In this document: in pieces, positions 37,353 through 57,600 of the stretch
Layout: the number at the start of each line of letters is the position of its first letter
Position numbering within the stretch: the first letter of the stretch is position 1
From: Flavobacteriales bacterium
GTDB lineage: Bacteria > Bacteroidota > Bacteroidia > Flavobacteriales_F > PHOS-HE28
Length of the DNA: 64,000 nucleotides
Direction of reading: 5' to 3'
Assembly (NCBI GenBank): GCA_041391845.1
Contig: JAWKNG010000005.1
Location: 17,381 to 81,380 of the forward strand
Notes under the pieces: generated by a model
Database searches by the model: none
What the model was told of the DNA's origin: nothing
Seen by the model: only the letters and a program-made list of their open reading frames with translations
Program-made: the position numbers and the translations under genes

Positions 37353-38603
37353 TCACCGTGGTGAAGCCGCAGGGACCGGGGGTGCGGCTGATGCCGGCCC
37401 AAGGAACGCGCTCCACAGCATCGCCATGAGCAGGGTCAGGCTGAGCACCTTGTAGTGGTCGAAGACCCAGCCGTACTCTCCGAGCAGCAGATGCGCATTG
37501 AAGCCAAGGAGGACGAAAAGCGCAGCGATCATGGCGGGGCGTGTGGGTCGGCCATGAGCGATCAGGCTGGCGCAGAGATGGAACAACAGCGGCAAGGCGA
37601 ACAATACGGAGTAGTTCTGCTGGTGGGGAAAGATGAGCGGAACGCAGGCCAGCAGATAGCCCACCTCCCAGGCCCGATGGGCTTCGGAAGGGGCTGGTCG
37701 GAAGGGTGGGGTGCGCAGGAACCACAGCATGGACAAGACCAGGATCAGGCGCGCGGCCAGCAGCGGGAGGGACAAGGCTGCCGGTTCCAACGAAAGCACG
37801 CGCCGTGCCAGCGGAACGCCGTGGTCGTTCACAGTGCTATCGCCGAAGTACGCGGAAACCACGCTCCCCAGGGATACGAAATCCGGCTCCTCATCATCCA
37901 ATTGATGCTGTTGTTGCGCGGGATCGAGCAGGGCCCAGCGTGTGCGGAGCAGCTCCTGTTGAAGGGTGCTCCCGATGAAGGGGATGGGAAGCGCCCCCAT
38001 CAACACGAGAAAGAGCGGCACGCGCAGGAGGGTGCGCCATTCGGAACGATAGGCCAGATAGGGCACCATCACCAGGGGCAGCAGCTTCAGATCGATCCCG
38101 GCAGCGAGCAGCAAGGCGGCGAACGTGGCTCGGCCACGCAGCGCCTGATGCAACACCTCCATGCAGCACCAGCAGAGCAGGATGGTGGACTGCGCCGCAT
38201 TGAGGTTGTCGCGCACCGCTTGGAGGGACAGGAGCGCCACAGCAGCATGCACCCACGACCGGTGTCGGAGCGGCAGCAGGGCCACGCCGGTCCATCGCTC
38301 CAGGAGGACGTGCATCCGAACCAGCAGGGCCAGCTGTAGGAGCCCCCACAGCAACTGCATGGTCCAGAGCGGGAAGGCGTTGAACGCACCGAGCAGCAGC
38401 GCGAAGGGGACCCCGTAGTAATACGCGTAACCATCCCGATAGCGTTCCAGGAAGATGTTCCTCCCTTCCAGCAGCGCGGATGCGGCATCCCTGAAAATGT
38501 GCATGTCGTTCAGGTTCCCGAGCGACAGCAGGAGCGTGACCAGCTGGAAGAGCGCCACGACCACCAGCAGCAGCAACGGCACACGAGCTTCGCGGATGTT
38601 CAT
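37353..38603 (-). CDS. Polytopic membrane protein, DUF2029/GT87-like (GT-C fold glycosyltransferase candidate)
   Basis: At least 10 predicted TM segments. An N-terminal loop with DMHIFRDAA...YAYYYG resembles the GT87/DUF2029 family. Confidence 0.55.
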   Translation of the reverse strand: MNIREARVPLLLLVVVALFQLVTLLLSLGNLNDMHIFRDAASALLEGRNIFLERYRDGYAYYYGVPFALLLGAFNAFPLWTMQLLWGLLQLALLVRMHVLLERWTGVALLPLRHRSWVHAAVALLSLQAVRDNLNAAQSTILLCWCCMEVLHQALRGRATFAALLLAAGIDLKLLPLVMVPYLAYRSEWRTLLRVPLFLVLMGALPIPFIGSTLQQELLRTRWALLDPAQQQHQLDDEEPDFVSLGSVVSAYFGDSTVNDHGVPLARRVLSLEPAALSLPLLAARLILVLSMLWFLRTPPFRPAPSEAHRAWEVGYLLACVPLIFPHQQNYSVLFALPLLFHLCASLIAHGRPTRPAMIAALFVLLGFNAHLLLGEYGWVFDHYKVLSLTLLMAMLWSAFLGPASAAPPVPAASPR

Positions 38604-42198: not shown

Positions 42199-43257
42199 AT
42201 GGTCGCCTGGCCCTTGCTCCTGCTGGCCCTGGCCGCCTGCGGAAGCCGGGACCAGCATATCCCCCCGCCGATCGCGGCCACCGATGTGGCCACCCGCACC
42301 TTCGGGGACGACGCCCCCTTCGACCAGGCCTGTGCCCACCGCAGCAGTGCGCAATTCATGGTGGGCACCCGCACCATCATTCCCAACCTGCACTGGGACA
42401 TGGAGGACAGCGCGGAACCCGGCCGGCTCAGCGACGCGCATGCCTACAGCGGCCGTCGCTCCATGCACATCCCCGACGACATGGAGTACAGCCCCGGCGT
42501 GTGCCGCCTGGTGAAGGACGTGGCTGACACCCTCCAGCACATCAGCACAGGTTTCTGGTCCTATTCCGAGGAGGACAGCCTCCGCCTCACACTGGTGATC
42601 ACCATCAAGCGTGGCGAGGAGCAGCTGCATTGGTTCGGCAAGGACGTACGCCGGGACGAGTACACACCCGGCCGATGGCAGCGCTTCAACGCTTCCTTCC
42701 CTGTGGATGGCAGCACGTTCACGGGAGAGGAGCGCATCTGCCTGTACCTCTGGAACCGCGCAGGCAGCGAACTCTTCGTGGACGATTGGGACCTGGTGTT
42801 CCGCAGCACCCGGATCCCCGGGTGGCGCGCTGCGCCCGGGATCGATCTGGAGCAGGCCGCACGAACACGTGAAGCGCTGCCCTTCGTCAAGATCGACCAT
42901 GTCCGTTCGGCGGATCCGGTGGCACATGGGATCAGGGTGGGTGGCCCGGTACCGCCCGTGACAGCAGTTCCGGTCGCCATGCCCGGACCTGCAGGACACA
43001 CCCTGCACCTGGCGGAAGGCGCCGCCGTGGGACTCCTGCGCGATCGCTCCGGCAAGGCCAAAGGCCTGTTCCGTGCGTGGCATCCGCTCATCGGCCGCGA
43101 CCTCTTCACCTTCGAGCGATGCCACCTGGAAGCTGCGGAGGATGGCATCCTCATCATCGCACACGATGTGGACACCGACCCGACGAGCGGACTTCCCATC
43201 GTGGCGGCCGAACCGGCACCGCTGGCCTACGTGGTCCAACTCGAAGCCCACCCATGA
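42199..43257 (+). CDS. Hypothetical lipoprotein (352 aa)
   Basis: Lipobox LLALAACGS. Its stop overlaps the next ATG (ATGA). Confidence 0.55.
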   Translation: MVAWPLLLLALAACGSRDQHIPPPIAATDVATRTFGDDAPFDQACAHRSSAQFMVGTRTIIPNLHWDMEDSAEPGRLSDAHAYSGRRSMHIPDDMEYSPGVCRLVKDVADTLQHISTGFWSYSEEDSLRLTLVITIKRGEEQLHWFGKDVRRDEYTPGRWQRFNASFPVDGSTFTGEERICLYLWNRAGSELFVDDWDLVFRSTRIPGWRAAPGIDLEQAARTREALPFVKIDHVRSADPVAHGIRVGGPVPPVTAVPVAMPGPAGHTLHLAEGAAVGLLRDRSGKAKGLFRAWHPLIGRDLFTFERCHLEAAEDGILIIAHDVDTDPTSGLPIVAAEPAPLAYVVQLEAHP

Positions 43258-45134
43258 ACCTGCGCGTCCTCCTCAGCTTTATGTCCGTCCTGCTGTTCGC
43301 AGCCTGTGCGCATGAAGAACGGACGGATGCCGCCGTGATCGACCGGGTGGACTGGCTGGTGAACATGCCGGCCGCAGAGAACGGTGTGCTCACGCTGGAG
43401 CTCGACTACCAGGACGCCATCGACAGTGGCTTCGTCATTCCCAGCGGCCGACAGGCGGAAGGGGGGCGCTTCACCTGCCGGTTGACGCCCGGACCCGATG
43501 CTGTGCCGGGCGGCGGCGTCCGCTACAAGATCTACTACAAGAACGACTCCTACCGCTTCCCGCATGGCACGTCGGAAGGGGCGCAGCACCCCCTTGCCCA
43601 CGAGAACTTCTACGGCAGCTGGGAGCGCGCGTCGGAAGGCTTCCGCAGCAGTGGACCACTGGCGGATGACGCCGTGATCGAGCTCGCCTTCCGCATCCAT
43701 GGCGACCCGCGTGAAGAGCCCCAGTACCGCGATGCGGAAGGCCGTTCGCTGCGCTGGGCGCGCAACCCCCGCGTGGGGCGCTATTCCTTCATGCTGGTGG
43801 CCATGAGCGAGGAGCGTTTCGCCGCGATCGAGCTCCCCGAAGCCGTGGTTAACATCGGCATACCGGACAGCGCCGGGTTCATCGACCCCTTCTGGTACTG
43901 GAAGGAAGGGCCAGGTTCCGCCCTGCCAGGCGTACAGGTGGTGGAAGCCCCTGTGCAGGTGCATGTGCAGGCACGGCCCGACCTGGGGGCCGGCATCCAC
44001 ATCCCCCCCCCCGCTCCAGAGCAGGCTTTCACCGCCACCTGCGGCAGCACCGAGGAGCTCAGGAAGCAGGCCCCCTTCGAACAGTTCATACACTACGTGG
44101 ACCCCTCCACCCGCTTCGCCAACATCCCCCTCATCGCCGACATCCTGGGCAACGAATACACCCCGGAGGACCACGACCATTACCGCGCCTTCTTCCCCCC
44201 CGAGGAGATGGTGACGCTCCGCCCCATGACCACCGCCACCCCTTGCGCCACGGTGAGCAGCGATCCGGAACGGGGCTCCATCCTGCTGCGCAATCCCGCC
44301 AGCACGCCCAGCGACATGCGCAAGGAGAACGTGGGTGTGCGCTCCCGCCATGGCCTGGCCTATGGACGCTACCAGGTGAAGTGCAAGCTCACGCGGCTGC
44401 TCAACGACTCGGACATGTGGGTGGGGCTCACCAACGCCATCTGGCTCATCTATGACGGTGCGCCGGGCTGCCTGCGCAGGCCCTGCGAAAAGGACGGCTA
44501 CCTGGCCAACTACTATGGCGGCGATGGCGATCAGCGCGTGCCCCGGGTGGCGTACTCAGAGATCGACTTCGAGATCCTGAAGACACCGGCCTACTGCCCC
44601 GACATGTCCTTTCCGCCTACCTACCCACAACAACTGGCCGATCATGGGGACCGCAACGCCTGGGCCTACAGCAGCAGTGACGCCCGCATGGACAGTCCCG
44701 GCATGATCACCGTGGCATGCACCAACTGGGACATGGCCTGCCACGAGCCGGAAGCGTTCAGCGCCGGTTGCCACACCCTGGAAAAGAACGGACGGACCTA
44801 CCTGAACCACCGCTGGAGCACGGATTACCGCGCCGTGACACAGAAGGTGGAGGAACTTGATGCCACGCTCTTCGGCGGCAGCCACTACTGGTTCGAGATC
44901 GACTGGCGGCCGGAGGAGATCATCTGGCGGATCGGCCCGGAGCGCGACCAACTGCACGTTGTCGGCTACATGGACCGCAGCATCACCGAGATCAGCAATG
45001 TGCAGATGCACCTGATCGTGACCCAGGAATACCACAACACCCGCTGGTGGCCGGGCACACCCTACGACCAGGGCTACATCCCCTTCCCCTCCAGGGAACT
45101 GGTCGGCGAGATCATGGAGGTCATCATCGAATGA
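43254..45134 (+). CDS. Lipoprotein with C-terminal GH16-like (concanavalin-A-like glucanase fold) domain
   Basis: Lipobox LLFAACAHE. The C-terminal half carries the GH16 pattern: YGRYQVKCKL, GLTNAIWLI and the catalytic-type ExDxE (SEIDFEILK), followed by YWFEIDWRPEEIIWRIG. The N-terminal ~300 aa are unassigned. Confidence 0.55.
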   Translation: MNLRVLLSFMSVLLFAACAHEERTDAAVIDRVDWLVNMPAAENGVLTLELDYQDAIDSGFVIPSGRQAEGGRFTCRLTPGPDAVPGGGVRYKIYYKNDSYRFPHGTSEGAQHPLAHENFYGSWERASEGFRSSGPLADDAVIELAFRIHGDPREEPQYRDAEGRSLRWARNPRVGRYSFMLVAMSEERFAAIELPEAVVNIGIPDSAGFIDPFWYWKEGPGSALPGVQVVEAPVQVHVQARPDLGAGIHIPPPAPEQAFTATCGSTEELRKQAPFEQFIHYVDPSTRFANIPLIADILGNEYTPEDHDHYRAFFPPEEMVTLRPMTTATPCATVSSDPERGSILLRNPASTPSDMRKENVGVRSRHGLAYGRYQVKCKLTRLLNDSDMWVGLTNAIWLIYDGAPGCLRRPCEKDGYLANYYGGDGDQRVPRVAYSEIDFEILKTPAYCPDMSFPPTYPQQLADHGDRNAWAYSSSDARMDSPGMITVACTNWDMACHEPEAFSAGCHTLEKNGRTYLNHRWSTDYRAVTQKVEELDATLFGGSHYWFEIDWRPEEIIWRIGPERDQLHVVGYMDRSITEISNVQMHLIVTQEYHNTRWWPGTPYDQGYIPFPSRELVGEIMEVIIE

Positions 45135-47458: not shown

Positions 47459-48181
47459 CTACAGCCCGTACTTCACAATGCACCAGATGGCGCGGAAACC
47501 GTCCTTCCAGCCTATCTTCTTGCCCTCTGCATACGTGCGGCCGTAGTAGCTGATGCCCACTTCGTAGATGCGGATACCGGGCACCCGTGCCAGCTTGGCG
47601 GTCACCTCTGGCTCGAACCCGAAGCGCCGCTCGCGCAGGTCGAGCCCCTTGGCGATGTCGCTCCGGATCAGCTTGTAGCAGGTTTCCATGTCCGTCAGGT
47701 TCAAGTTGTTGAACGCGTTGGACAGGAAGGTCAGGAACGTGTTGCCGATGCTGTGCCAGAAGAACAGGATACGGTGGGGGTGATGGCCCATGAAGCGCGA
47801 ACCATAGACCACGTCGGCAAAGCCTTCCACCACAGGCCGAAGCAGGTCGTTGTATTCACGTGGGTCGTACTCCAGATCCGCATCCTGCACGATCAGGTAT
47901 TCGCCCGTGGCCTCGTGGATGCCCCGGTGGATGGCCGCTCCCTTGCCCATGTTGCGGGGCTGGTCATAGAACTTGATGCCCATGGAGGGATGGGTATCCA
48001 TATAGCGGCGCACGGCCTCCACTGTACCGTCCTTGGAGCCATCATTCACAATGATCACCTCCTTGGCAATGCCGTTCATCAGCTCCACGGCACGCACCTT
48101 GTCCAGGATCAGATGGATCGTACGCTCCTCGTTATAGGCCGGGATGATGATGGACAGGTTGCGCAACACTGGGTTGGTCAT
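47459..48181 (-). CDS. GT2 polyprenol-phosphate sugar synthase (Dpm1/ArnC-like)
   Basis: [32 protein letters not shown] (DxD). 240 aa, the typical size for Dpm1/ArnC-like enzymes. Confidence 0.85.
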
Positions 48182-48216
48182 GGTGCTCTTTTGTAGGCCG
48201 GAGTGCGATCAATGGA

Positions 48217-49779
48217 TCATAGCGGAGGCTGAACAAAGCTCTCATTTCCCGTTTCAAGATATTGAACGCGAGATGGCAGCAACGCACGAAGCTCATCCGA
48301 AGGGTTCACAACGATGATGCGACGCCCCTTCTGTATGAGGAGCGCTGTTCGCTCGGGATCGGGAGTGCCGGGGATCACTTGATGGCCGTGGAAGAACATC
48401 ATGGTCAGATTGGCAGGAAAAGGAACATTATAGATGATGGCGTGTCCTTGTGTCCCATCGATCTCCGATGCAAGGCGATCCATGACACGTAGGTTCTGGA
48501 GATGGGCCGACCTGTACACCGAATAGAACGGGTCGAGCTTTGCCTGTGCCGTGTGGGTGCGCTGCAACCGCTCCAACTGGAACAAGGCGCCCGCACTCAC
48601 GGCCACCGCGAGGACCAGCCATGTTCGGCTCAGCGAATAGGGTCGAGTGACCAATGCAAGCAAATGGGCGAGCCCTATGAAGAAGAAGCCGATCACCAGC
48701 ATGGGATAAGCATGCATCTTGGTAGCTGCCAACGTATACACCATGTACGTGACCACAACGCTGGTGATGGCCATGATCCTCATCCTCCGCTCCCGGCACT
48801 GGGTGACTGAAAGCAGCAAAGCACCGAACATCAGCAACGATGGGAACGGCTGGAACTGCTCCACCAAGGAATGATAGTAGAACCAATGGTCTCCCACATG
48901 ACCCTCCACCGCCTCCCAGAGGTGCAGGGAGTTGAATGACATTTCGTGGGCCATTTCCACTGGGAAACGGACCCAGGCGCTGATCTGCCAGGGAGCCGCT
49001 AGCAACACCGCGACCGCCAGCGCGATCAACAAGGCTTTCAGCTCCTGCCTTCGATCTCCAGTACCCAGTAGGAAGATAAGCGACCATCCACCGAAAAGCA
49101 GCGCCCCCGGAAGCCATTTCGTGAGAAGAGCCGATCCAACGAAACACCCGGCCACGACCGCCCACCGAAGCTTCCTTGACCGATCCCATTCACTCCACGC
49201 CCAAAAGGAACCTCCCACAAGGGAAATGAATACAGCATTGTTATGGTCGGATAACACACCACCAAGACAAAGGATCAAGAACCAATGTGACCATGCCATC
49301 AGGAACGCAGCATGGAAGGCCGTGTCCTTGTCATGCATGCTGCGGGCAAGGCGATAGGTGAAGAATACCAATGCAGTGGTGAACAGAGCGCTCGGCAGGC
49401 GCAAGGCGAACACCGAATAACCCAGCACACGTAGTGACAGAGAGATCATCCAAAGGAAAAAAGGCTGCTTGTGAAGCCAGACATTGTTCAAGGTCCACTC
49501 CTTGTGATCCAGGCCGAGTTCCGTATCCGTGAAGAGCATCGGTGTGAAGGGATGTTCCACCATGTTGCGGGCAACAACGGCATGAACACATTCATCCCAA
49601 ATGTTCAGGAAGGGATCCAACTGGATGGCCATCAAGCGCAGGGTCAGTGCCGCCAGCAACACGAGACCCAAAGCGGTTCGTTCCTGCGACCTATGCCATA
49701 GCACCAAGCCCAGTACCGACAGCAGGCAGGCCAACGCTATGGCAAGCTGCGCAGATGGGTCAAAGTAGGAGTCGAACAT
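48217..49779 (-). CDS. GT-C fold glycosyltransferase, PMT_2/ArnT-like (GT39/GT83-like)
   Basis: N-terminal loop DE motif (NIWDECVHA) and HKQPFFLW, which resembles the KPPL-YW motif of the family. About 12 TM segments. Confidence 0.7.
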   Translation of the reverse strand: MFDSYFDPSAQLAIALACLLSVLGLVLWHRSQERTALGLVLLAALTLRLMAIQLDPFLNIWDECVHAVVARNMVEHPFTPMLFTDTELGLDHKEWTLNNVWLHKQPFFLWMISLSLRVLGYSVFALRLPSALFTTALVFFTYRLARSMHDKDTAFHAAFLMAWSHWFLILCLGGVLSDHNNAVFISLVGGSFWAWSEWDRSRKLRWAVVAGCFVGSALLTKWLPGALLFGGWSLIFLLGTGDRRQELKALLIALAVAVLLAAPWQISAWVRFPVEMAHEMSFNSLHLWEAVEGHVGDHWFYYHSLVEQFQPFPSLLMFGALLLSVTQCRERRMRIMAITSVVVTYMVYTLAATKMHAYPMLVIGFFFIGLAHLLALVTRPYSLSRTWLVLAVAVSAGALFQLERLQRTHTAQAKLDPFYSVYRSAHLQNLRVMDRLASEIDGTQGHAIIYNVPFPANLTMMFFHGHQVIPGTPDPERTALLIQKGRRIIVVNPSDELRALLPSRVQYLETGNESFVQPPL

Positions 49780-49897
49780 GGTGGCACAGGAGCTTGGCCT
49801 GGTTCTTCTATTTCAACGGACCATCTTCTTTGCCTGCTCCAGCGTGCGCTTTCTATGATCCATCCGGACGCAACAAGATCGCAGCAGGTCTGGGGTC

Positions 49898-50554
49898 TTA
49901 CACCTCCATCTCCGGCACCTCCCCCTCCACCACCAGCCGTCCCTCGGTCTTCGCCTGTATCTCCTCCACGCTCACGCCCGGCGCACGTTCCAGCAGTTTG
50001 AAGCCGTTCGGTGTCACCTCGAACATGCCCAGGTCGCTGACGATCTTCTTCACGCAGCCCACACCGGTGAGCGGCAGGGTGCACTGCTTCAACAGCTTGC
50101 TCTCACCAGCCTTGTTGGTATGGAGCATGCACACGATGATGTTGTCCGCACTGGCCACCAGGTCCATGGCGCCGCCCATGCCCTTCACCATCTTGCCGGG
50201 GATCTTCCAATTGGCGATGTCGCCGGTGTCGCTCACCTCCATCGCACCCAGCACGGTGAGCTGCACATGCTGCCCGCGGATCATGGCGAAGCTGGTGGCA
50301 CTGTCGAAGATGGCCGCGCCGTCCTTCAGCGTCACCGTCTGCTTGCCCGCATTGATCAGGTCGGCATCCTCTTCACCCTCAAAGGGGAAGGGGCCCATTC
50401 CCAGGATGCCGTTCTCGCTTTGCAGCTCCACGCTGATGCCGGCGGGAATGTAGTTGGCCACCAAGGTGGGTATGCCGATGCCCAGGTTCACGTACCAGCC
50501 GTCCTTCAGTTCGCGCGCGATGCGCTGGGCCATTTGTTCCTTCGTCAGGGCCAT
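49898..50554 (-). CDS. scoB: 3-oxoacid CoA-transferase subunit B
   Basis: The sequence has the pattern of the CoA-transferase beta subunit throughout ([18 protein letters not shown]). Confidence 0.9.
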
Positions 50555-50557
50555 GGG

Positions 50558-52369
50558 TCAATGGGGTTCAGGTGTGCGAAGTTCGTCATCCGTGGACATC
50601 CGCAGCATGCGCGAACGAACCTCCTGTCGTTCCAGGACCTGCCGCCTTGGGTTGTACAGGTACACCACCAAGGACCGTGCAGCTTCCACAGCCGGTATCC
50701 AACGTCGGAAGCGGATGCGATCGGTGCCTGGTGCAGTGTGTCGCGCTCGCAGTTCAACCCGGTCCACCTGCACCGCCTGTCCATCACCACCCCGCAGTTC
50801 GATCACGACCTCTGCTGAGAGCAGCTCATCCGCACAGTGCAACATCAGCTCCAGCTCCAAGCAGCGCAGGCCGGGACCGAAGCGCTCGGCGGGCTCGTTC
50901 CACAGGTCCTGGAACTCCGCATCGCTGGCGGCCGCGTTGAAGCTGGTGTCCAAGAGAACGCTCAGCTCAATGGGAGCCATCCGCTCGAACAGGACCTGCC
51001 TGCCCGCCCTGCTACCCACCACGGCCAGATAGCCGTGCGGCACTTCGAAATAGCCGGTATCCACCAGCAGCAGGTCGTGGTACGCGGCGGGGTGGCCGTT
51101 CGGGTCCAGCACCGGCACTGCAATGCCTGCCATGCGCGCCTGAACATCCCAGACGGGCACCATCTGCCGGTAAGCGCCCACGCTCAGGATCCCCTCTGAG
51201 GCAGCAGCACGTTCCGCTACAGCACGATACTGCGCCAGCTCAGCCGACTCTTCCGGCCAACTGAGGGTGCGGGCCGGATGCCATGCCCGCAGCGCCAGGA
51301 GCGGCGGCAGAAGAAGCGGCACCACGCCCACCCAACTTAGCCACGAACGCCGCACAACGGGCAGGTCCGAGGCAAATGCGATGACGAGCAACGCGAGCGG
51401 CACCAGGTGCAGGGCCGTACGGTCGATGGGGTATAGCGTTCCCCACATCACGTGCATCAGCGTGCGGCCCACCACTTCTGCACTGAGCAGCGCGGCCACC
51501 AGCACCAGCGGACGGATAGCGGCTTCCCTGCCCTGTCGCAGCAACGTGTGGATGGCGACCCCCAGGGCCAGCAACACGGGCACCAACAACGACCAGCGCG
51601 CAGCATCCATATCGGTGCCGAGCAGGGGACGCGTGAGCGATGCGAGCGTACCATTCACCCACCCGGCATCGCTGCCGTAATAGAGCGCGCCGCGTTCCGA
51701 AAGGCCTTGTCCATATCGCACCGCAAGGAGCATGGGAGCGGCCCCAAGCACCAACCACTGCATGGCCAGAACGGCGCGGCGCAGGCCGCGCTGCACAACG
51801 ATGACCGGCAGCACCAGTGCGAGCATCATCAAGCCGAGCAGGGTGCCGTTGAGCGAGCACCACGTACCCAGCGCCACGGCCACCAACAAGGGCCACGGTC
51901 GCTCCTGGCGCGGTGCGGCCATGAAGGCCAGCAAGTGATGGATCGCCATCGCATGGAAGGCGAGCGCAGGTCCATAGCCACGGAACAACGAGAAGAAATC
52001 GAGCAGGAACGGCGTACCGATCCACGCTGCGCGGAAGGACCACGCGATGGTGGATGCCTTGATCCAGGTGCCAAGCCGCCAACCGTACCACGCGTATACG
52101 ACGAAGGAGAGCACAGGGAAGAGCCGCAGCACGATGGGCGCTTCACCGAAGAGCTGCTCGATGCACCACGCCACAGCGGTCACCAGCACGTGGTTGCCCG
52201 CGTCCCACTGCGCATGGAAGGGCAGGAAGTCGCCGCTGAGCACGTACACCAGCCAGGTGCGGGCCTCATCGTGCACCAAGGGAATCTGCCACGCACGCCA
52301 CAGCACCAGCATGCCCACCAGCGCCGCCAGTGCCGCATACAGCAAACCGGGGCGGCGCAGGACGATCAT
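50558..52369 (-). CDS. GT-C fold membrane glycosyltransferase-like protein (PMT_2/ArnT-like), lying between scoA and scoB
   Basis: More than 10 TM helices. HDEARTW loop motif near the N-terminus, then a C-terminal soluble domain. Confidence 0.6.
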   Translation of the reverse strand: MIVLRRPGLLYAALAALVGMLVLWRAWQIPLVHDEARTWLVYVLSGDFLPFHAQWDAGNHVLVTAVAWCIEQLFGEAPIVLRLFPVLSFVVYAWYGWRLGTWIKASTIAWSFRAAWIGTPFLLDFFSLFRGYGPALAFHAMAIHHLLAFMAAPRQERPWPLLVAVALGTWCSLNGTLLGLMMLALVLPVIVVQRGLRRAVLAMQWLVLGAAPMLLAVRYGQGLSERGALYYGSDAGWVNGTLASLTRPLLGTDMDAARWSLLVPVLLALGVAIHTLLRQGREAAIRPLVLVAALLSAEVVGRTLMHVMWGTLYPIDRTALHLVPLALLVIAFASDLPVVRRSWLSWVGVVPLLLPPLLALRAWHPARTLSWPEESAELAQYRAVAERAAASEGILSVGAYRQMVPVWDVQARMAGIAVPVLDPNGHPAAYHDLLLVDTGYFEVPHGYLAVVGSRAGRQVLFERMAPIELSVLLDTSFNAAASDAEFQDLWNEPAERFGPGLRCLELELMLHCADELLSAEVVIELRGGDGQAVQVDRVELRARHTAPGTDRIRFRRWIPAVEAARSLVVYLYNPRRQVLERQEVRSRMLRMSTDDELRTPEPH

Positions 52370-52370
52370 C

Positions 52371-53069
52371 TCAGCGCTTGCGCACCGTGCGTTGCTCGAT
52401 GCGCTTCTCGTAGTTCACACCTTGGAAGATGCGCTGCACGAAGATGCCCGGTGTGTGGATCTCGTCCGGATCGAGCTCACCGGGCTCCACCAGGTGCTCC
52501 ACTTCAGCCACGGTGATCTTGCCGGCCATGGCCATCATGGGATTGAAGTTGCGGGCCGTGCGCTTGTAGACCAGGTTCCCCAGGCGATCGCCTTTCCAGG
52601 CCTTCACCAGCGCGAAGTCGGCGCGGAGCCACTCTTCCAGCACGTACATCTTGCCGTGGAATTCGCGCGTCTCCTTGCCCGCCGCCACTTCGGTGCCGTA
52701 GCCCGCGGGGGTGAAGAAGGCGGGAATGCCAGCACCACCGGCGCGGCAGCGCTCGGCCAGTGTTCCCTGGGGGATCAGCTCCACCTCCAGTTCGCCGCTC
52801 AGCATCTGCCGCTCGAATTCGGCGTTCTCACCCACGTAGCTGCTGATCATTTTGCGGATCTGCTTGGTCTGCAGCAACAGGCCCAGGCCGAAGTCGTCCA
52901 CCCCCGCATTGTTGCTGATGCAGGTGAGGCCCTTCACGCCGCTCTTCACCAGTGCGTTGATGCTGTTCTCCGGGATCCCGCACAGGCCGAAGCCACCCAC
53001 CATCAGGGTCATGTTGTCCGCGATCCCGTGCAGTGCTTCTGCGGCATTGGCCACCACCTTGTTCATCAT
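52371..53069 (-). CDS. scoA: 3-oxoacid CoA-transferase subunit A
   Basis: MMNKVVANAAEALHGIADNMTLMVGGFGLCGIPE... matches the alpha-subunit pattern. Confidence 0.9.
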   Translation of the reverse strand: MMNKVVANAAEALHGIADNMTLMVGGFGLCGIPENSINALVKSGVKGLTCISNNAGVDDFGLGLLLQTKQIRKMISSYVGENAEFERQMLSGELEVELIPQGTLAERCRAGGAGIPAFFTPAGYGTEVAAGKETREFHGKMYVLEEWLRADFALVKAWKGDRLGNLVYKRTARNFNPMMAMAGKITVAEVEHLVEPGELDPDEIHTPGIFVQRIFQGVNYEKRIEQRTVRKR

Positions 53070-53153: not shown

Positions 53154-55562
53154 TCACTCCCACAACGGCTCCACAGGCACCCCCGTCTCCCGGTCCCGGG
53201 TGCGGCAGTTGAGCGTGCTGGCATCGAAGCCGGCAGGCACCTCGAAATCGCCGGTGCTGATGGTGATGCTGCTATCGGCATACACCTTGTTCATGTAGTA
53301 GCCGTAGATCGGCAGTGCCATGTTCGCGCCCTGACCCTTGTCGGTGCTGGCGAAGCGCACACTGCGATCATCCGCACCCGTCCACACGCCGGTCACCAGG
53401 TCGGGGGTGATGCCGATGAACCAACCATCGCTGTTGTTCTGCGTGGTGCCCGTCTTGCCCGCCGTGGGGAACTTGATGTTGGCGTAGCGCGCCCGGTTGC
53501 CCCAGCTGGTGCGCAGGCGCAGGCCCGTGCCCACCACCTTGCCCGTGCTGGGGTTGTAGGCGCCGTCGGTCACGCCCTTCAGGATCTTCAGCATCTTGTA
53601 GGCGGTGATCTCGTCCAGCGCCTCGTAGGTGTTGGGCGTCACGTCGAAGACGGTGTTCCCGTTCTTGTCCTCGATGCGCGTTATCAGGATGGGCTCGATA
53701 TAGACACCTTGGTTGGCGAAGGACGAGAAGGCGCCGGTGATCTCCATCAACGTCAGATCGGCCACGCCCAGGCACAGTGAGGGCACCGCTTCCAAGGGGC
53801 TCTTCACCCCCATGTGGCGCGCCAGCACGGTCACCGCCTGCGGACCGTACTGCTTCATCAGCCAGGCCGTCACCGTGTTCATACTATTGGCAAGGGCGTA
53901 CTCCAGGGTCACCATGCCGCCGTAGACCGCGTCGCTGTTCTCGGGGCACCAGTCCGGCTGACCGGGCGGCATATCGAAGCACACCTTCTGGTTGGGCACC
54001 TCGCGGCACAGGTCCATGCCTTCGCGCAGCGCGGTGGCGTATACGAAGGGCTTGAACGTGGAGCCCACCTGACGCCGCGCCTGTTCCACGTGGTCGTATT
54101 GGAAGTGCTTGAAGTCGATGCCGCCCACCCACGCCTTAACGAAGCCCGTATGCGGATCCATGCTCAGCAGACCGCTTTGCAGGAAGCCCTTGTAGTAGCG
54201 GATGGAATCCATCGGGCTCATCACCGTGTCGCGCTCGCCCTTCCAGGTGAACACACGCATCTTGGTGGGTGTGTCGAAGATCTTCGGGATCTCGTCCTCC
54301 TTCACCACGGGCCAGTACGTGTCGCAGCCACCGAGGTCCGGGCGGCAGTGGTAGTGTTTGCGGCCCTCGTGCTGCTTGGTCTCGATGTAGCGCGCAGGCC
54401 GCTCGCAGTTGCCGCACTGTTTGCCGGTGAGCACCTTGTAGCGTACACTGCGCTTCATGGCGGTGTTCAGGATACCGGCGATCTCCTCCTCGCTCACGCG
54501 GAAGTCGAAGGGCCTGTTCTTCTTCTTCGCCAGGTCCTTGAAGAAGTCGGGCTGCAGCTCGTTGCGCAGGTGTTCCTGCAAGCCCCATTCGGCGTACTGC
54601 TGCATGCGGCGGTCCAGCGTGGTGTACACCTTCAGGCCATCGGTGTAGATGTCGTAGGGCCTGCCGTCCGACTTGGCGAAACGGTAGCTGCCATCCTCGT
54701 TCTTCTCCGCGAAGAGCTTGATCAATTTGGCGCGCAGCACCTCGCGGAAGTAGGGCGCAGGTCCTTCCGTGTGGTCCACCCGTTGGAAACGCAGGCCGAT
54801 GGGCAGGGCCTTCAATGAATCGTATTCCGCAGTGGTCAGGAAGCCGTTCTTGCGCATCTGGTCCAGCACCACCATGCGGCGGGTGAGCGTGGTGTCCGGC
54901 CTGCGCAGCGGGTTGAAGAGCGCGGGGTTCTTGCACATGCCCACCAACAGGGCGGCCTCCTCGATGCGCAGGGAATCGGGGGTGGTGTTGAAATACACGC
55001 GGGCCGCGCTGTTGATGCCCACCGCCTGATTGATCCAATCGAAGCGGTTCAGGTACATGGCGATGATCTCGTTCTTCGTGTACTGCCGCTCCAGCCGGGC
55101 GCTGATGATCCACTCCTGGAACTTCTGGAACGTACGCTTCACGAAGTTGGGCGAGCGATCGGTGAAGAGCATCTTGGCCAGCTGCTGGGTGAGGGTGCTG
55201 GCGCCGCCCTTCTTGCCCAGGTACACCGCTGCACGCAACGTGCCCCGCACGTCGATGCCGCTGTGGTCACGGAAGCGCTCGTCCTCCGTGGCGATCAATG
55301 CGTTCACCACATGCGGACTGATGCGCTCATAGTCCACCGGGATGCGGTTCTCCCGGTAGTACTGGCCCATCTGGCTGCCATCGCTGAACAGGATGGCCGT
55401 GGCCAGGTCGCTGCGGGGGTTCTCCAGGTCCTCGGTGCCGGGCAGGTCGCTGAAGGCCGCGAGCACCAGCATGAAGAATAGCCCCAGCACGGGTGCGAGC
55501 ACCAAGCCCCACCAGGCATAGAGCCAGCGGCTGCGCTTCGACTTAGGGGTTGGTGCGGCCAT
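53154..55562 (-). CDS. mrcA: Penicillin-binding protein 1A (bifunctional transglycosylase/transpeptidase)
   Basis: GT51 motifs (EDERFRDHSGID, GASTLTQQLAK) and transpeptidase SxxK/KTG motifs (STFKP, KTGTT). Confidence 0.9.
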   Translation of the reverse strand: MAAPTPKSKRSRWLYAWWGLVLAPVLGLFFMLVLAAFSDLPGTEDLENPRSDLATAILFSDGSQMGQYYRENRIPVDYERISPHVVNALIATEDERFRDHSGIDVRGTLRAAVYLGKKGGASTLTQQLAKMLFTDRSPNFVKRTFQKFQEWIISARLERQYTKNEIIAMYLNRFDWINQAVGINSAARVYFNTTPDSLRIEEAALLVGMCKNPALFNPLRRPDTTLTRRMVVLDQMRKNGFLTTAEYDSLKALPIGLRFQRVDHTEGPAPYFREVLRAKLIKLFAEKNEDGSYRFAKSDGRPYDIYTDGLKVYTTLDRRMQQYAEWGLQEHLRNELQPDFFKDLAKKKNRPFDFRVSEEEIAGILNTAMKRSVRYKVLTGKQCGNCERPARYIETKQHEGRKHYHCRPDLGGCDTYWPVVKEDEIPKIFDTPTKMRVFTWKGERDTVMSPMDSIRYYKGFLQSGLLSMDPHTGFVKAWVGGIDFKHFQYDHVEQARRQVGSTFKPFVYATALREGMDLCREVPNQKVCFDMPPGQPDWCPENSDAVYGGMVTLEYALANSMNTVTAWLMKQYGPQAVTVLARHMGVKSPLEAVPSLCLGVADLTLMEITGAFSSFANQGVYIEPILITRIEDKNGNTVFDVTPNTYEALDEITAYKMLKILKGVTDGAYNPSTGKVVGTGLRLRTSWGNRARYANIKFPTAGKTGTTQNNSDGWFIGITPDLVTGVWTGADDRSVRFASTDKGQGANMALPIYGYYMNKVYADSSITISTGDFEVPAGFDASTLNCRTRDRETGVPVEPLWE

Positions 55563-55681
55563 CGGGCGGCGAAGTTATCGGTGGGGGCGGGAGGAGAACG
55601 GTGGGTGAGCTGCAAGAAGTGTGAACAGGCGCAGGTTGTTCTTGCGCATTCCCGATCACTTCCACGCTCAAAGCATGCTAC

Positions 55682-56158
55682 CTACTCCCCCCGCTCCACG
55701 CTCACCCCCACATCCAGCACCCCTTCCAGACGTTCGGTGCGCATGGCCTGCTCCAGGCGGATGCGGTAGTCGCCTGCGGCGGGGAAGCGGCTGCCGTGGC
55801 GGTAGAGCACGCGCGCGGCCACGGTGCGGCCGGCGAAGATGAAGCCCGTGCCCTTGCCGTACCAGCGGCCGGTGGGGTCGGCCATGCGGCACTCCACGGT
55901 GTCGCGCGCATGGCGGCCGTCGGGACCGTACATGTCCACGAAGAGGTAGAGGTCGCTGAAGGGGTAGTCACCGGTGTGGCGGATGTCGATCACCAGGTCG
56001 TACTGGGACACGGTGTCGGTCACCGCGAAGCTGAACTCGGGGGTGAAGCTGCGGTCCCACGCGCCGTCGGGCACGGGCACATCGGCCTGGAAGAGCACAC
56101 CCTCGGGGGTGCAGCCCTGGAGCGCTGCGAGGAGCACGAAGGGGAGCACGTACCGCAT
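55682..56158 (-). CDS. gldH: Gliding motility lipoprotein GldH
   Basis: A 158-aa lipoprotein (lipobox LQGCT) with a GldH-like sequence, directly downstream of a PSP1-domain gene. This is the conserved Bacteroidota arrangement. Confidence 0.7.
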   Translation of the reverse strand: MRYVLPFVLLAALQGCTPEGVLFQADVPVPDGAWDRSFTPEFSFAVTDTVSQYDLVIDIRHTGDYPFSDLYLFVDMYGPDGRHARDTVECRMADPTGRWYGKGTGFIFAGRTVAARVLYRHGSRFPAAGDYRIRLEQAMRTERLEGVLDVGVSVERGE

Positions 56159-57600
56159 CAGGCCGCTGGGGGTGCGCTGGGTGGCGGGGCACCACCGGGT
56201 CCCTTGTCACCGCCGCGTCCGCGTCCCCTGCCACGTCCGCGATCGCGCCGGGGGCGGTCACCGCCGGCACCTTCGGCCCGCTGTTCGCCAGGGGGGCGCG
56301 GGGGGCGCGACGTACCGGCACCTTCAGGGCGGGGACCACGCTCCGGTCGGGGTCCACGCTCGGGGCGGGGGCGGTTGTCCTGCGCCGGGCGGTCGCCTGC
56401 GGGGCGCGCTTGCTGGCCACCAGCAGCACCTTGCGGACGCCGATCGCCATCGCGGCCGCTGCGGCCTTTGCTCTTGCTGCGTTTGCGGCCGCTCTTCACC
56501 TTGCTGTCGAAGCGGGTGAGGTCGTCCTGGCCCACCACGTTCTCGTAGTCGGGCTTCTTCTCCACCTCCACCGGTGCATCGGCCATGTTCAGGTCCACCT
56601 CGGGGATGATGCCTTCCTTGTTCTGGGCCAGGATATCGCGCACCACCTCCACCGGGAAACCGGCCATGATGAAGGGGCTGCCGGGCGTCTTGAAGCCGTA
56701 CCACATCTTGCCGGTGAAGATGTCGGTCTTGATGTGCGCGCCGGTGCCTTGTGCAGTCTTGAGCTTGGCGTTCTGGCTGGGGTAGCTCTTGATCGCCTCG
56801 ATGTACATGTCCAGCTCGTAGTTCAGGCAGCACTTCAGCTTGCCGCACTGCCCGGCGAGTTTCTGGGGGTTGAGGGCCAGTTGCTGGTACCGCGCCGCGC
56901 TGGTGGTGACGCTGCGGAAGTCGGTGAGCCAGGTGCTGCAGCACAGTTCGCGGCCGCAGCTGCCGATGCCCCCGATGCGACCGGTCTCCTGGCGGGCACC
57001 GATCTGTTTCATCTCCACGCGCACCTTGAAACGGTCGCTCATGGTGCGGATGATGCCGCGGAAGTCGATGCGTTCCTCGGCCACGTAGTAGAACACGGCC
57101 TTGGTGCCATCGGCCTGGTACTCCACATCGGTCACCTTCATGTCCAGGCGGGCATCGCGCACCAGTTGGCGGGCGGCGAACATGGTCTCGTCCTCCAGCT
57201 TGCGGCTGGCGTGCCAGCGGTCGATCTCCTCCTGGGTGCTCTTGTGCAGCACCTTGCGCAGGTCGTAGGTCTCGCCGCTCACGTTGCGGCGCTCCATCTG
57301 TGCGCGCACCAGTTCACCGGTGAGGCTCACCATGCCGATGTCGTATCCGGGCGCCGCATCCACGGTCACCAGGTCGCCGGGCATCAGTTGCAGACCGCTG
57401 GTGTTGCGGTAGAAGGCCTTGCGGGTGTTCTTGAAGCGCACCTCCACCCCATCGAAGGGCTGTTGACCGGCGGCGATGGGCACACCGGCGAGCCAATCGA
57501 AGACCCCGAGCTTGTTACAGCCGCTGGAGCTGCAATACCCGTTGCTCTTGCACCCGGCGGGTTTCCCATCCGCTCCACTGCTGCATCCTGTACACGCCAT
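56158..57600 (-). CDS. PSP1 C-terminal domain protein (RicT/YaaT-like) with Cys-rich N-terminus and long RG/RP-rich low-complexity C-terminal tail
   Basis: The PSP1 core is present (ARQETGRIGGIGSCGRELCCSTWL...KCCLNYE). The tail reads ...RPERGPRPERGPRPEG...RDRGRGRGRGRGGDKG. Confidence 0.75.
   Translation of the reverse strand: MACTGCSSGADGKPAGCKSNGYCSSSGCNKLGVFDWLAGVPIAAGQQPFDGVEVRFKNTRKAFYRNTSGLQLMPGDLVTVDAAPGYDIGMVSLTGELVRAQMERRNVSGETYDLRKVLHKSTQEEIDRWHASRKLEDETMFAARQLVRDARLDMKVTDVEYQADGTKAVFYYVAEERIDFRGIIRTMSDRFKVRVEMKQIGARQETGRIGGIGSCGRELCCSTWLTDFRSVTTSAARYQQLALNPQKLAGQCGKLKCCLNYELDMYIEAIKSYPSQNAKLKTAQGTGAHIKTDIFTGKMWYGFKTPGSPFIMAGFPVEVVRDILAQNKEGIIPEVDLNMADAPVEVEKKPDYENVVGQDDLTRFDSKVKSGRKRSKSKGRSGRDGDRRPQGAAGGQQARPAGDRPAQDNRPRPERGPRPERGPRPEGAGTSRPPRPPGEQRAEGAGGDRPRRDRGRGRGRGRGGDKGPGGAPPPSAPPAA

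Follow-up and report, generated by a model that had tools for sequence, protein, structure and literature searches.

A GT-C-fold membrane glycosyltransferase gene between scoA and scoB in Flavobacteriales, at what looks like the edge of a surface-sugar decoration locus

Several described systems combine a lipid-sugar synthase with glycosyltransferases of the GT-C type. These include the ArnC/ArnT pair of lipid A aminoarabinose modification, the Dpm1/PMT pair of protein O-mannosylation and, in mycobacteria and corynebacteria, Ppm1 or PpgS together with Emb, Aft, PimE or Rv3779. In Rhizobium, the dodecaprenyl-phosphate galacturonate synthase RgtE serves several GT-C enzymes, RgtA-D, which decorate the lipopolysaccharide (LPS). 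A conserved synthase accompanied by hypervariable GT-C enzymes is a pattern known from gtr and O-antigen loci. A three-component glycosylation paradigm has been described, and the Gtr system comprises the flippase GtrA, the undecaprenyl-phosphate (Und-P)-glucose synthase GtrB and the serotype-specific GT-C enzyme GtrC (PMC11127046). In this work we focused on a stretch of 64,000 nucleotides (nt), hereafter the window, from a Flavobacteriales bacterium of the phylum Bacteroidota (assembly GCA_041391845.1, contig JAWKNG010000005.1, positions 17,381 to 81,380), in which the genes of the two subunits of a 3-oxoacid CoA-transferase, scoA and scoB, are separated by a gene encoding a membrane protein, here called X. 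X represents a new and unnamed family within the known GT-C kind, and its genomic position, although unusual, can be explained. The arrangement has the look of a gene-order accident of long standing, on the margin of a locus for surface-sugar decoration, and not of a new pathway. The genes concerned are the following.

52371-53069, minus strand: scoA, 3-oxoacid CoA-transferase subunit A, 232 amino acids (aa); matched by TIGR02429 and CoA_trans
50558-52369, minus strand: X, membrane glycosyltransferase of an unnamed family with a predicted GT-C fold, 603 aa; assigned by AlphaFold2 model and Foldseek
49898-50554, minus strand: scoB, 3-oxoacid CoA-transferase subunit B, 218 aa; matched by TIGR02428, with a SENG motif
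48217-49779, minus strand: GT-C2, membrane glycosyltransferase of the GT-C type and PMT_2 family, 520 aa, in the position of a replaceable cassette; matched by Pfam PMT_2
47459-48181, minus strand: GT2, soluble DPMS/GtrB/ArnC-like glycosyltransferase, 240 aa, presumed polyprenyl-phosphate-sugar synthase; matched by PF00535
45131-47452, plus strand: third membrane protein with a predicted GT-C fold (DUF6311-type), 773 aa, with a C-terminal beta-sandwich like a carbohydrate-binding module (CBM); assigned by AlphaFold2 model and Foldseek

The five minus-strand open reading frames (ORFs) between 47459 and 53069 are all intact and have the coordinates given in an earlier note on this DNA. That note had described scoA and scoB as split by a polytopic GT-C gene on the same strand with almost no spacers, and this description holds. 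Read from the sequence, the TGA of scoA is followed by 1 nt and the ATG of X, and the TGA of X by 3 nt ('ccc') and the ATG of scoB. Further along, 118 nt separate scoB from GT-C2 and 35 nt separate GT-C2 from GT2. The distance between scoA and scoB is 1,816 nt, and the usual adjacent and coupled organisation of the A and B genes, which is no strict requirement, is absent here. A repeat search around the insert gave short chance matches only, and no mobile-element scars or repeats were found flanking X.

Both CoA-transferase subunits are full length and score above the curated cut-offs. ScoA matches TIGR02429 with 289.8 bits (cut-off 128.5; E = 1.1e-86) and CoA_trans with E = 5.6e-79, and ScoB matches TIGR02428 with 325.1 bits (cut-off 243.55; E = 1.4e-97). 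The SENG motif present in the ScoB translation is the one that holds the catalytic Glu of class I CoA-transferases. The acetate CoA-transferase alpha model gave 240.5 bits on ScoA, under that model's cut-off of 315. ScoA shows 76-97% identity to its counterparts in 80 Bacteroidota genomes, and ScoA and ScoB are approximately 80% identical with X present or absent. With both subunits intact, above the family cut-offs and highly conserved, the pair resembles canonical scoA-scoB operons of the pcaIJ/atoDA type, from which it differs by a separation of 1.8 kb here and of up to 5.7 kb in relatives carrying three X copies.

X was matched by no Pfam or NCBIfam model, and a profile of its family gave no match among all PDB sequences; only fold comparison worked. 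PMT_2 (PF13231) was matched weakly by 7 of 43 X homologues (best E = 6.5e-5), X itself giving no match. The AlphaFold2 model, obtained with the 43 homologues, has a predicted local distance difference test score (pLDDT) of 92.4 and a predicted template modelling score (pTM) of 0.90. In it, some 11-13 transmembrane (TM) helices (residues 1-360) are followed by a small alpha/beta region and, at the C-terminus, by a beta-sandwich (residues ~430-591), which is predicted to be periplasmic. When the membrane part was compared with the PDB using Foldseek, GT-C enzymes only were retrieved: EmbC/EmbB/EmbA from 1.7e-8, ArnT at 2e-6, ALG9 at 1.4e-5, ALG12 at ~1e-5, Pmt4 at 3.4e-4, as well as STT3 and PglB. 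The C-terminal domain matched jelly-roll folds. Judged by its predicted fold, X is thus a member of the GT-C superfamily; the GT-C nature assigned to it by the earlier note stands, and the label 'PMT_2/ArnT-like' found no backing in sequence models. Its donor would be a polyprenyl-phosphate-linked sugar, in view of the modelled fold and of the neighbouring DPMS-like GT2.

In GT-C enzymes, the catalytic acidic residues lie shortly after the first TM segment, where the first extracytoplasmic loop begins. Invariant positions across the 43 X-family sequences are D34-E35, D56, N59, H60, R130-G131-Y132, R302 and R317. In the model, D34-E35 start a helix (residues 33-43) just after the first TM segment (residues 2-28), in the first extracytoplasmic loop, and are a candidate for the catalytic Asp-Glu of X. 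GT-C2 has W61-D62-E63 at the equivalent position, and WDE is shared with 4 of 6 aligned relatives encoded after scoB. An acidic Asp/Glu loop, as the earlier note had expected of these proteins, is therefore present in both. X and GT-C2 are not recent duplicates of each other, the hhalign comparison being not significant (probability 7%).

The X family is large, with 4810 clusters at 50% identity for E<=1e-3 and 1832 for E<=1e-30. Nearly all named homologues come from metagenome-assembled genomes (MAGs) of Flavobacteriales. X defines a large GT-C family unseen by the Pfam and NCBIfam models and, given its confident model and candidate catalytic Asp-Glu, a ready target for a CAZy-style family definition.

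The earlier note had also placed a second GT-C gene and a GT2 similar to polyprenol-phosphate-sugar synthases downstream of scoB, and both assignments are borne out. GT-C2 matches PMT_2 with E = 1.4e-15 and 58.3 bits (gathering threshold 26.1). GT2 matches PF00535 with E = 7.9e-32, and its closest solved relatives are the Pyrococcus furiosus DPMS (5mlz; 1.9e-14 over residues 8-223), GtrB (1.2e-13) and ArnC (2.7e-11). Its translation holds a DAD motif, and no TM segment is predicted in it. All 120 clusters of GT2 homologues among the matches listed are at least 86% identical. GT2 thus resembles the DPMS catalytic domain and, from its sequence, is presumed to be a polyprenyl-phosphate-sugar synthase.

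The DUF6311-type gene is convergent on GT2, with 6 nt between the two stops. The protein has no Pfam match of its own, its homologues carrying PF19830. Its AlphaFold2 model (pLDDT 92.0, pTM 0.91) matched AftA (1.6e-6), PglB (3.3e-6), AglB, STT3 and ArnT (1.9e-4) in Foldseek, and its C-terminal beta-sandwich matched CBM15, CBM16 and CBM22. According to the predicted structures, GT2 is hence surrounded by three GT-C-fold enzymes, X, GT-C2 and the DUF6311-type protein. The identities of the GT-C enzymes and of GT2 are firm.

Upstream of the DUF6311-type gene, positions 43254-45134 (plus strand) encode a 626-aa protein, the stop of which overlaps the ATG of the DUF6311-type gene by 4 nt (ATGA). 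It had no match in Pfam or among PDB sequences; it contains an 'EIDFE' stretch, which we take to be reminiscent of the GH16 catalytic motif, and it may be a glycan-processing partner of the DUF6311-type GT-C. Approximately 9 kb from GT2, a minus-strand ORF (37353-38603) encodes a protein of 416 aa, for which 8 TM segments are predicted and which matches Pfam GT87 with 3e-10. GT87 is a family of polyprenyl-phosphate-mannose-dependent mannosyltransferases of the GT-C type.

The arrangement in relatives was studied by scanning one genome per GTDB species with ScoA, which yielded 80 Bacteroidota loci; these were sorted using tblastn and a hidden Markov model of the X family, with the following outcome.

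scoA and scoB adjacent (gap <150 nt): 41/80 loci
X immediately 3' of scoA, with scoB following 1-3 copies of X: 14/80 loci
X immediately 3' of scoA, followed by a contig end or a rearrangement: 5/80 loci
150-900 nt insert between scoA and scoB: 9/80 loci
other large insert between scoA and scoB: 2/80 loci
scoB out of reach: 9/80 loci

X thus lies immediately after scoA in 19 of the 80 species-level loci. The same was found in all six metagenomic or MAG contexts, in which an X homologue 29-37% identical to X directly follows scoA at a distance of 5-15 nt; five of these continue with scoB, at least one GT-C-like gene and a GT2 of the same type of about 240 aa. The arrangement is consequently not an unusual one-off. 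Of the X-bearing loci with enough downstream sequence, most have an orthologous or matching GT2 of approximately 239 aa up to about 7 kb downstream of scoB. Within Fluviicola and Crocinitomicaceae, X (22-24% identity) occupies the scoA|scoB site in some genomes and is missing from others. We found no literature on a scoA-GT-C-scoB arrangement, and likewise nothing relevant on an O-mannosyltransferase of Flavobacterium.

Genes unrelated to X have entered the same junction. In at least four of the loci with small inserts, genes of about 115 aa encoding a PF05635 '23S rRNA intervening sequence protein' lie between scoA and scoB, at these positions.

Locus L045: 10739-11089
Locus L075: 10752-11096
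Locus L070: 10769-11137
Locus L078: 9179-9532

The scoA|scoB junction has been invaded repeatedly by unrelated genes and tolerates inserts. At another locus (L041, 7436-9274), a 612-aa protein without Pfam match, belonging to a separate membrane family, is encoded between scoA and scoB; members of this family sit after scoB in L006, L010, L012 and L014.

The genes of the locus differ widely in their conservation. Across X-bearing loci, identity to the window is 83-97% for ScoA/ScoB and 84-90% for GT2, and only 22-40% for X (76% in the closest genome). Where X is 30-40% identical, GT2 likewise stands at 84-90%. Among species-level genomes, the nearest is the Flavobacteriales MAG JADKCV01 (locus L006), with 90% DNA identity from PSP1 to PBP1a. 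The scoA-X-scoB segment is syntenic between the two at 82.5% DNA identity, after which synteny breaks, returns at GT2 (81%) and stops after GT2. The interval between scoB and GT2 holds GT-C2 alone in the window, and in L006 it holds 5.3 kb with three other genes and no GT-C2 counterpart. The GC content at third codon positions (GC3) is 0.67 for GT-C2, 0.78 for X and 0.83-0.93 for the neighbours, and the local GC content dips to 0.56 at 47500-49800, that of the whole window being 0.63. The dip and the low GC3 suggest another lineage as the source of the GT-C2 cassette. In the X tree, several old paralogue clades were found, the tandem copies of one genome belonging to different clades and single-copy genomes keeping different ones, which points to an ancestral X array followed by differential loss or exchange.

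A conserved synthase, hypervariable GT-C genes and conserved housekeeping flanks make the locus similar to gtr loci. As in the Gtr system, a GtrB-related GT2 has GT-C-fold transferases for neighbours, high conservation of the synthase goes with hypervariable, cassette-like GT-C enzymes, and a lipid-phosphate-sugar synthase and GT-C enzymes are, by sequence and fold, encoded together. The differences are that no GtrA, SMR or MATE flippase was seen in the locus, that the TM helices found at the C-terminus of GtrB are missing from GT2, that several GT-C enzymes accompany one synthase (three in the window, up to about six in relatives), and that these carry periplasmic beta-sandwich domains. Furthermore, the locus is chromosomal, vertically inherited and interleaved with scoAB, and not phage-borne.

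The mycobacterial and corynebacterial systems share other features with the locus. EmbC/EmbB/EmbA are the top matches of X and AftA that of the DUF6311-type protein, the GT-C enzymes carry a C-terminal beta-sandwich resembling a carbohydrate-binding domain, many GT-C enzymes go with few lipid-sugar synthases, and a GT87 gene is also present in the window. However, identity is 12-15%, X has about 600 aa compared with about 1,050 aa for Emb, and the host is a Gram-negative member of the Bacteroidota without arabinogalactan. The likeness to RgtE/RgtA-D lies in the single GT2 lipid-sugar synthase with several GT-C enzymes; the name RgtE on a close GT2 homologue comes from the automatic annotation of one database source.

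The earlier note had further compared the GT2 and GT-C genes with ArnC/ArnT and with the synthase/PMT pair of protein O-mannosylation. Membership in either was not upheld by the curated cut-offs. Assignments to the ArnT/ArnC, AglJ, PpgS and PgfS equivalogs all failed, the PpgS model matching GT2 weakly (1.5e-14) and under its cut-off. The likeness to ArnC/ArnT consists of the GT2 and GT-C pair and of the fold match of ArnT to X (2e-6, template modelling score ~0.42-0.46), whereas the equivalog cut-offs are missed widely (28.6 versus 567 bits for ArnT on GT-C2, 51 versus 529 bits for ArnC on GT2) and the neighbourhood showed no further arn genes. With the Dpm1/PMT pair the locus shares the likeness of GT2 to the DPMS catalytic domain, but no PMT (PF02366) or MIR domain was matched in any of its GT-C proteins.

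We favour the explanation that an envelope-glycan decoration locus has grown into and around a normal scoAB operon, and we give this picture as a whole somewhat better than even chances. ScoA and ScoB would form an ordinary two-subunit catabolic CoA-transferase of the succinyl-CoA:3-oxoacid type, unrelated in function to glycosylation, and GT2, X, GT-C2 and the DUF6311-type protein would perform extracytoplasmic glycan decoration of the type that uses lipid-linked monosaccharides. As a peripheral enzyme, GT2 would transfer a sugar from a nucleotide sugar onto Und-P at the inner membrane face. The lipid-linked sugar would then be flipped to the periplasmic side, where X, GT-C2 and the DUF6311-type enzyme would each move it onto an envelope glycan, such as LPS, capsule or a protein O-glycan. 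The acceptor would be bound by the periplasmic domain of each GT-C, a CBM-like beta-sandwich in X and in the DUF6311-type protein. An array of X paralogues would have arrived at the scoA|scoB junction in an ancestral member of this Flavobacteriales lineage and then been passed down with losses that differ between descendants, scoA, scoB and GT2 serving as homology anchors between which variable GT-C cassettes could be exchanged or lost.

In its present position, X probably rides on the transcription and translation signals of scoA. Such a dependence on scoA expression would explain why the adjacency of scoA and X survives rearrangements. Glycan decoration also fits the presence of a 321-aa O-acyltransferase (Acyl_transf_3) next to GT2, on the opposite strand, in the Crocinitomicaceae locus L062. 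ORFs of the same size, matched by size alone, occupy that position in L028 and L060. The Crocinitomicaceae GT2 orthologue is 70-72% identical and lies 12-32 nt from scoB (L062 11427-13105, L084 11390-12103, L060 13314-15109, L028 14980-16741).

Several observations weigh against this explanation. No flippase candidate, GtrA-like or other, was found among small multi-TM ORFs near the locus in a hydropathy screen of the window ORFs, and no GtrA match was obtained among the small ORFs scanned in related loci; a flippase may be encoded elsewhere. In L062 and L084, two Crocinitomicaceae loci without X, GT2 abuts scoB with gaps of 12-32 nt. The association of scoAB with GT2 therefore predates the insertion of X, which an accident of gene order leaves unexplained. 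X directly follows scoA, with gaps of 1-15 nt, in every context seen, even where the upstream genes are others (PBP1a, nuo genes, a PKD protein). In L088 (7001-9755), L016 and L018, X is found directly after scoA and scoB is not within 9-10 kb, so that the CoA-transferase subunit genes can become fully unlinked; in L088, X is followed by TonB-related and other unrelated genes. The persistence of the scoA-X adjacency could thus result from selection for co-expression and not from inertia. Finally, X could use a donor that is not made by GT2.

There is an alternative that we regard as unlikely, according to which X transfers glycans en bloc from undecaprenyl-diphosphate-linked donors, as an oligosaccharyltransferase, ligase or polymerase, its proximity to GT2 being incidental. 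X would then possibly be a protein O-oligosaccharyltransferase or a glycan ligase of Bacteroidota O-glycosylation. A 2025 review counts the oligosaccharyltransferase, the ligase and the core-glycan flippase of this pathway among the components still to be discovered, and it suggests looking for O-mannosylation homologues (PMC12871550). Such a role would be in line with STT3, PglB and AglB being among the fold matches of X and with no Und-P-sugar flippase having been found in the locus. However, the top fold matches of X, Emb, ArnT, ALG9 and ALG12, use polyprenyl-monophosphate sugars, most loci have X and the conserved GT2 together, and the CBM-like beta-sandwich domain points to a carbohydrate acceptor. 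Moreover, an enzyme of general glycosylation would be phylum-wide, and X is limited to part of the Flavobacteriales, with a variable number of copies.

A functional coupling, in which the genes for CoA transfer and for glycosylation stay linked by serving one physiological programme, appears distinctly improbable to us. One version is a remodelling of envelope glycans co-regulated with amino-acid and ketoacid catabolism. In a second, speculative one, acetoacetyl-CoA from ScoAB would feed mevalonate-derived polyprenol, the lipid carrier for GT2 and the GT-C enzymes; its sole footing is that many Flavobacteriia use the mevalonate pathway. The constancy of the scoA-X adjacency in all ~25 contexts despite other rearrangements speaks for coupling, as do the spacers of 1-15 nt, which suggest translational coupling, and the position of GT2 directly after scoB in the two X-less Crocinitomicaceae loci. 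Against it, in 41 of 80 relatives, where neither X nor GT2 is close by, scoA and scoB lie side by side and their products are conserved to the same degree, and the copy number and identity of X vary freely, whereas those of ScoAB do not. Nor do we know of any chemistry that joins a class I CoA-transferase to GT-C catalysis. Since ScoA and ScoB keep their identity with or without X, and since the unrelated PF05635 genes occupy the same junction elsewhere, no functional tie between CoA transfer and glycosylation is indicated. The earlier note had named, as what would speak against its interpretation, that the insert be common between scoA and scoB without any functional link; it is indeed common there, and the observations just given argue for the second half. 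Of that interpretation, the gene types and the logic of a lipid-sugar synthase working with GT-C enzymes remain valid; the arrangement itself turns out to be a conserved trait of the lineage, and we found no evidence tying CoA transfer to glycosylation.

Very unlikely, in our estimate, is the broader proposal that the very highly conserved GT2 and one or more neighbouring GT-C enzymes belong to the machinery, still to be discovered, for installing the conserved mannose-based core of the general protein O-glycan of Bacteroidota, in a manner akin to O-mannosylation as PMC12871550 suggests, or that the scoAB-X-GT2 linkage reflects a real tie between acetoacetyl-CoA, polyprenol and lipid-linked glycosylation. 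If proteins did turn out to be targets of the GT2 and GT-C set, this would be relevant to the enzymes still missing from Bacteroidota O-glycosylation.

That the split is a mis-assembly, or that scoAB was pseudogenised by a recent mobile insertion, has practically no chance of being true and is effectively refuted, for beyond the GC3 of X, somewhat under that of its neighbours, nothing was found in its support, and against it stand the recurrence of the gene order across many independent assemblies, one of them a single-contig record of 3.85 Mb (CP065018.1), the intact ORFs, with ScoA and ScoB full length and above the cut-offs, the absence of flanking repeats and the divergence of X in place to 22-40% identity.

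The locus indicates that hypervariable surface-glycan genes can lodge between very conserved housekeeping genes of Bacteroidota or be exchanged across them, and it warns against inferring function from operon membership in this phylum.

Upstream of scoA and on the same strand lie PBP1a, gldH, a PSP1-domain gene and a gene for a DNA polymerase III delta-type subunit (PF13177), gldH being a pointer to Bacteroidota. No match to the Bacteroidota promoter motif TTTG-N17-23-TAnnTTTG was obtained across the window, and a scan for sigma-70 promoters and terminators, by consensus searches that are uninformative for Bacteroidota, showed no terminator-like site in the spacer between scoB and GT-C2. The PSP1-domain ORF ends (56158-56560, minus strand) in a long low-complexity tail rich in Arg, Pro and Gly, with repeats of the type RPERGPRPERGPRPE, and this tail coincides with a composition peak at 55500-56999, where the local GC content reaches 0.69-0.71.

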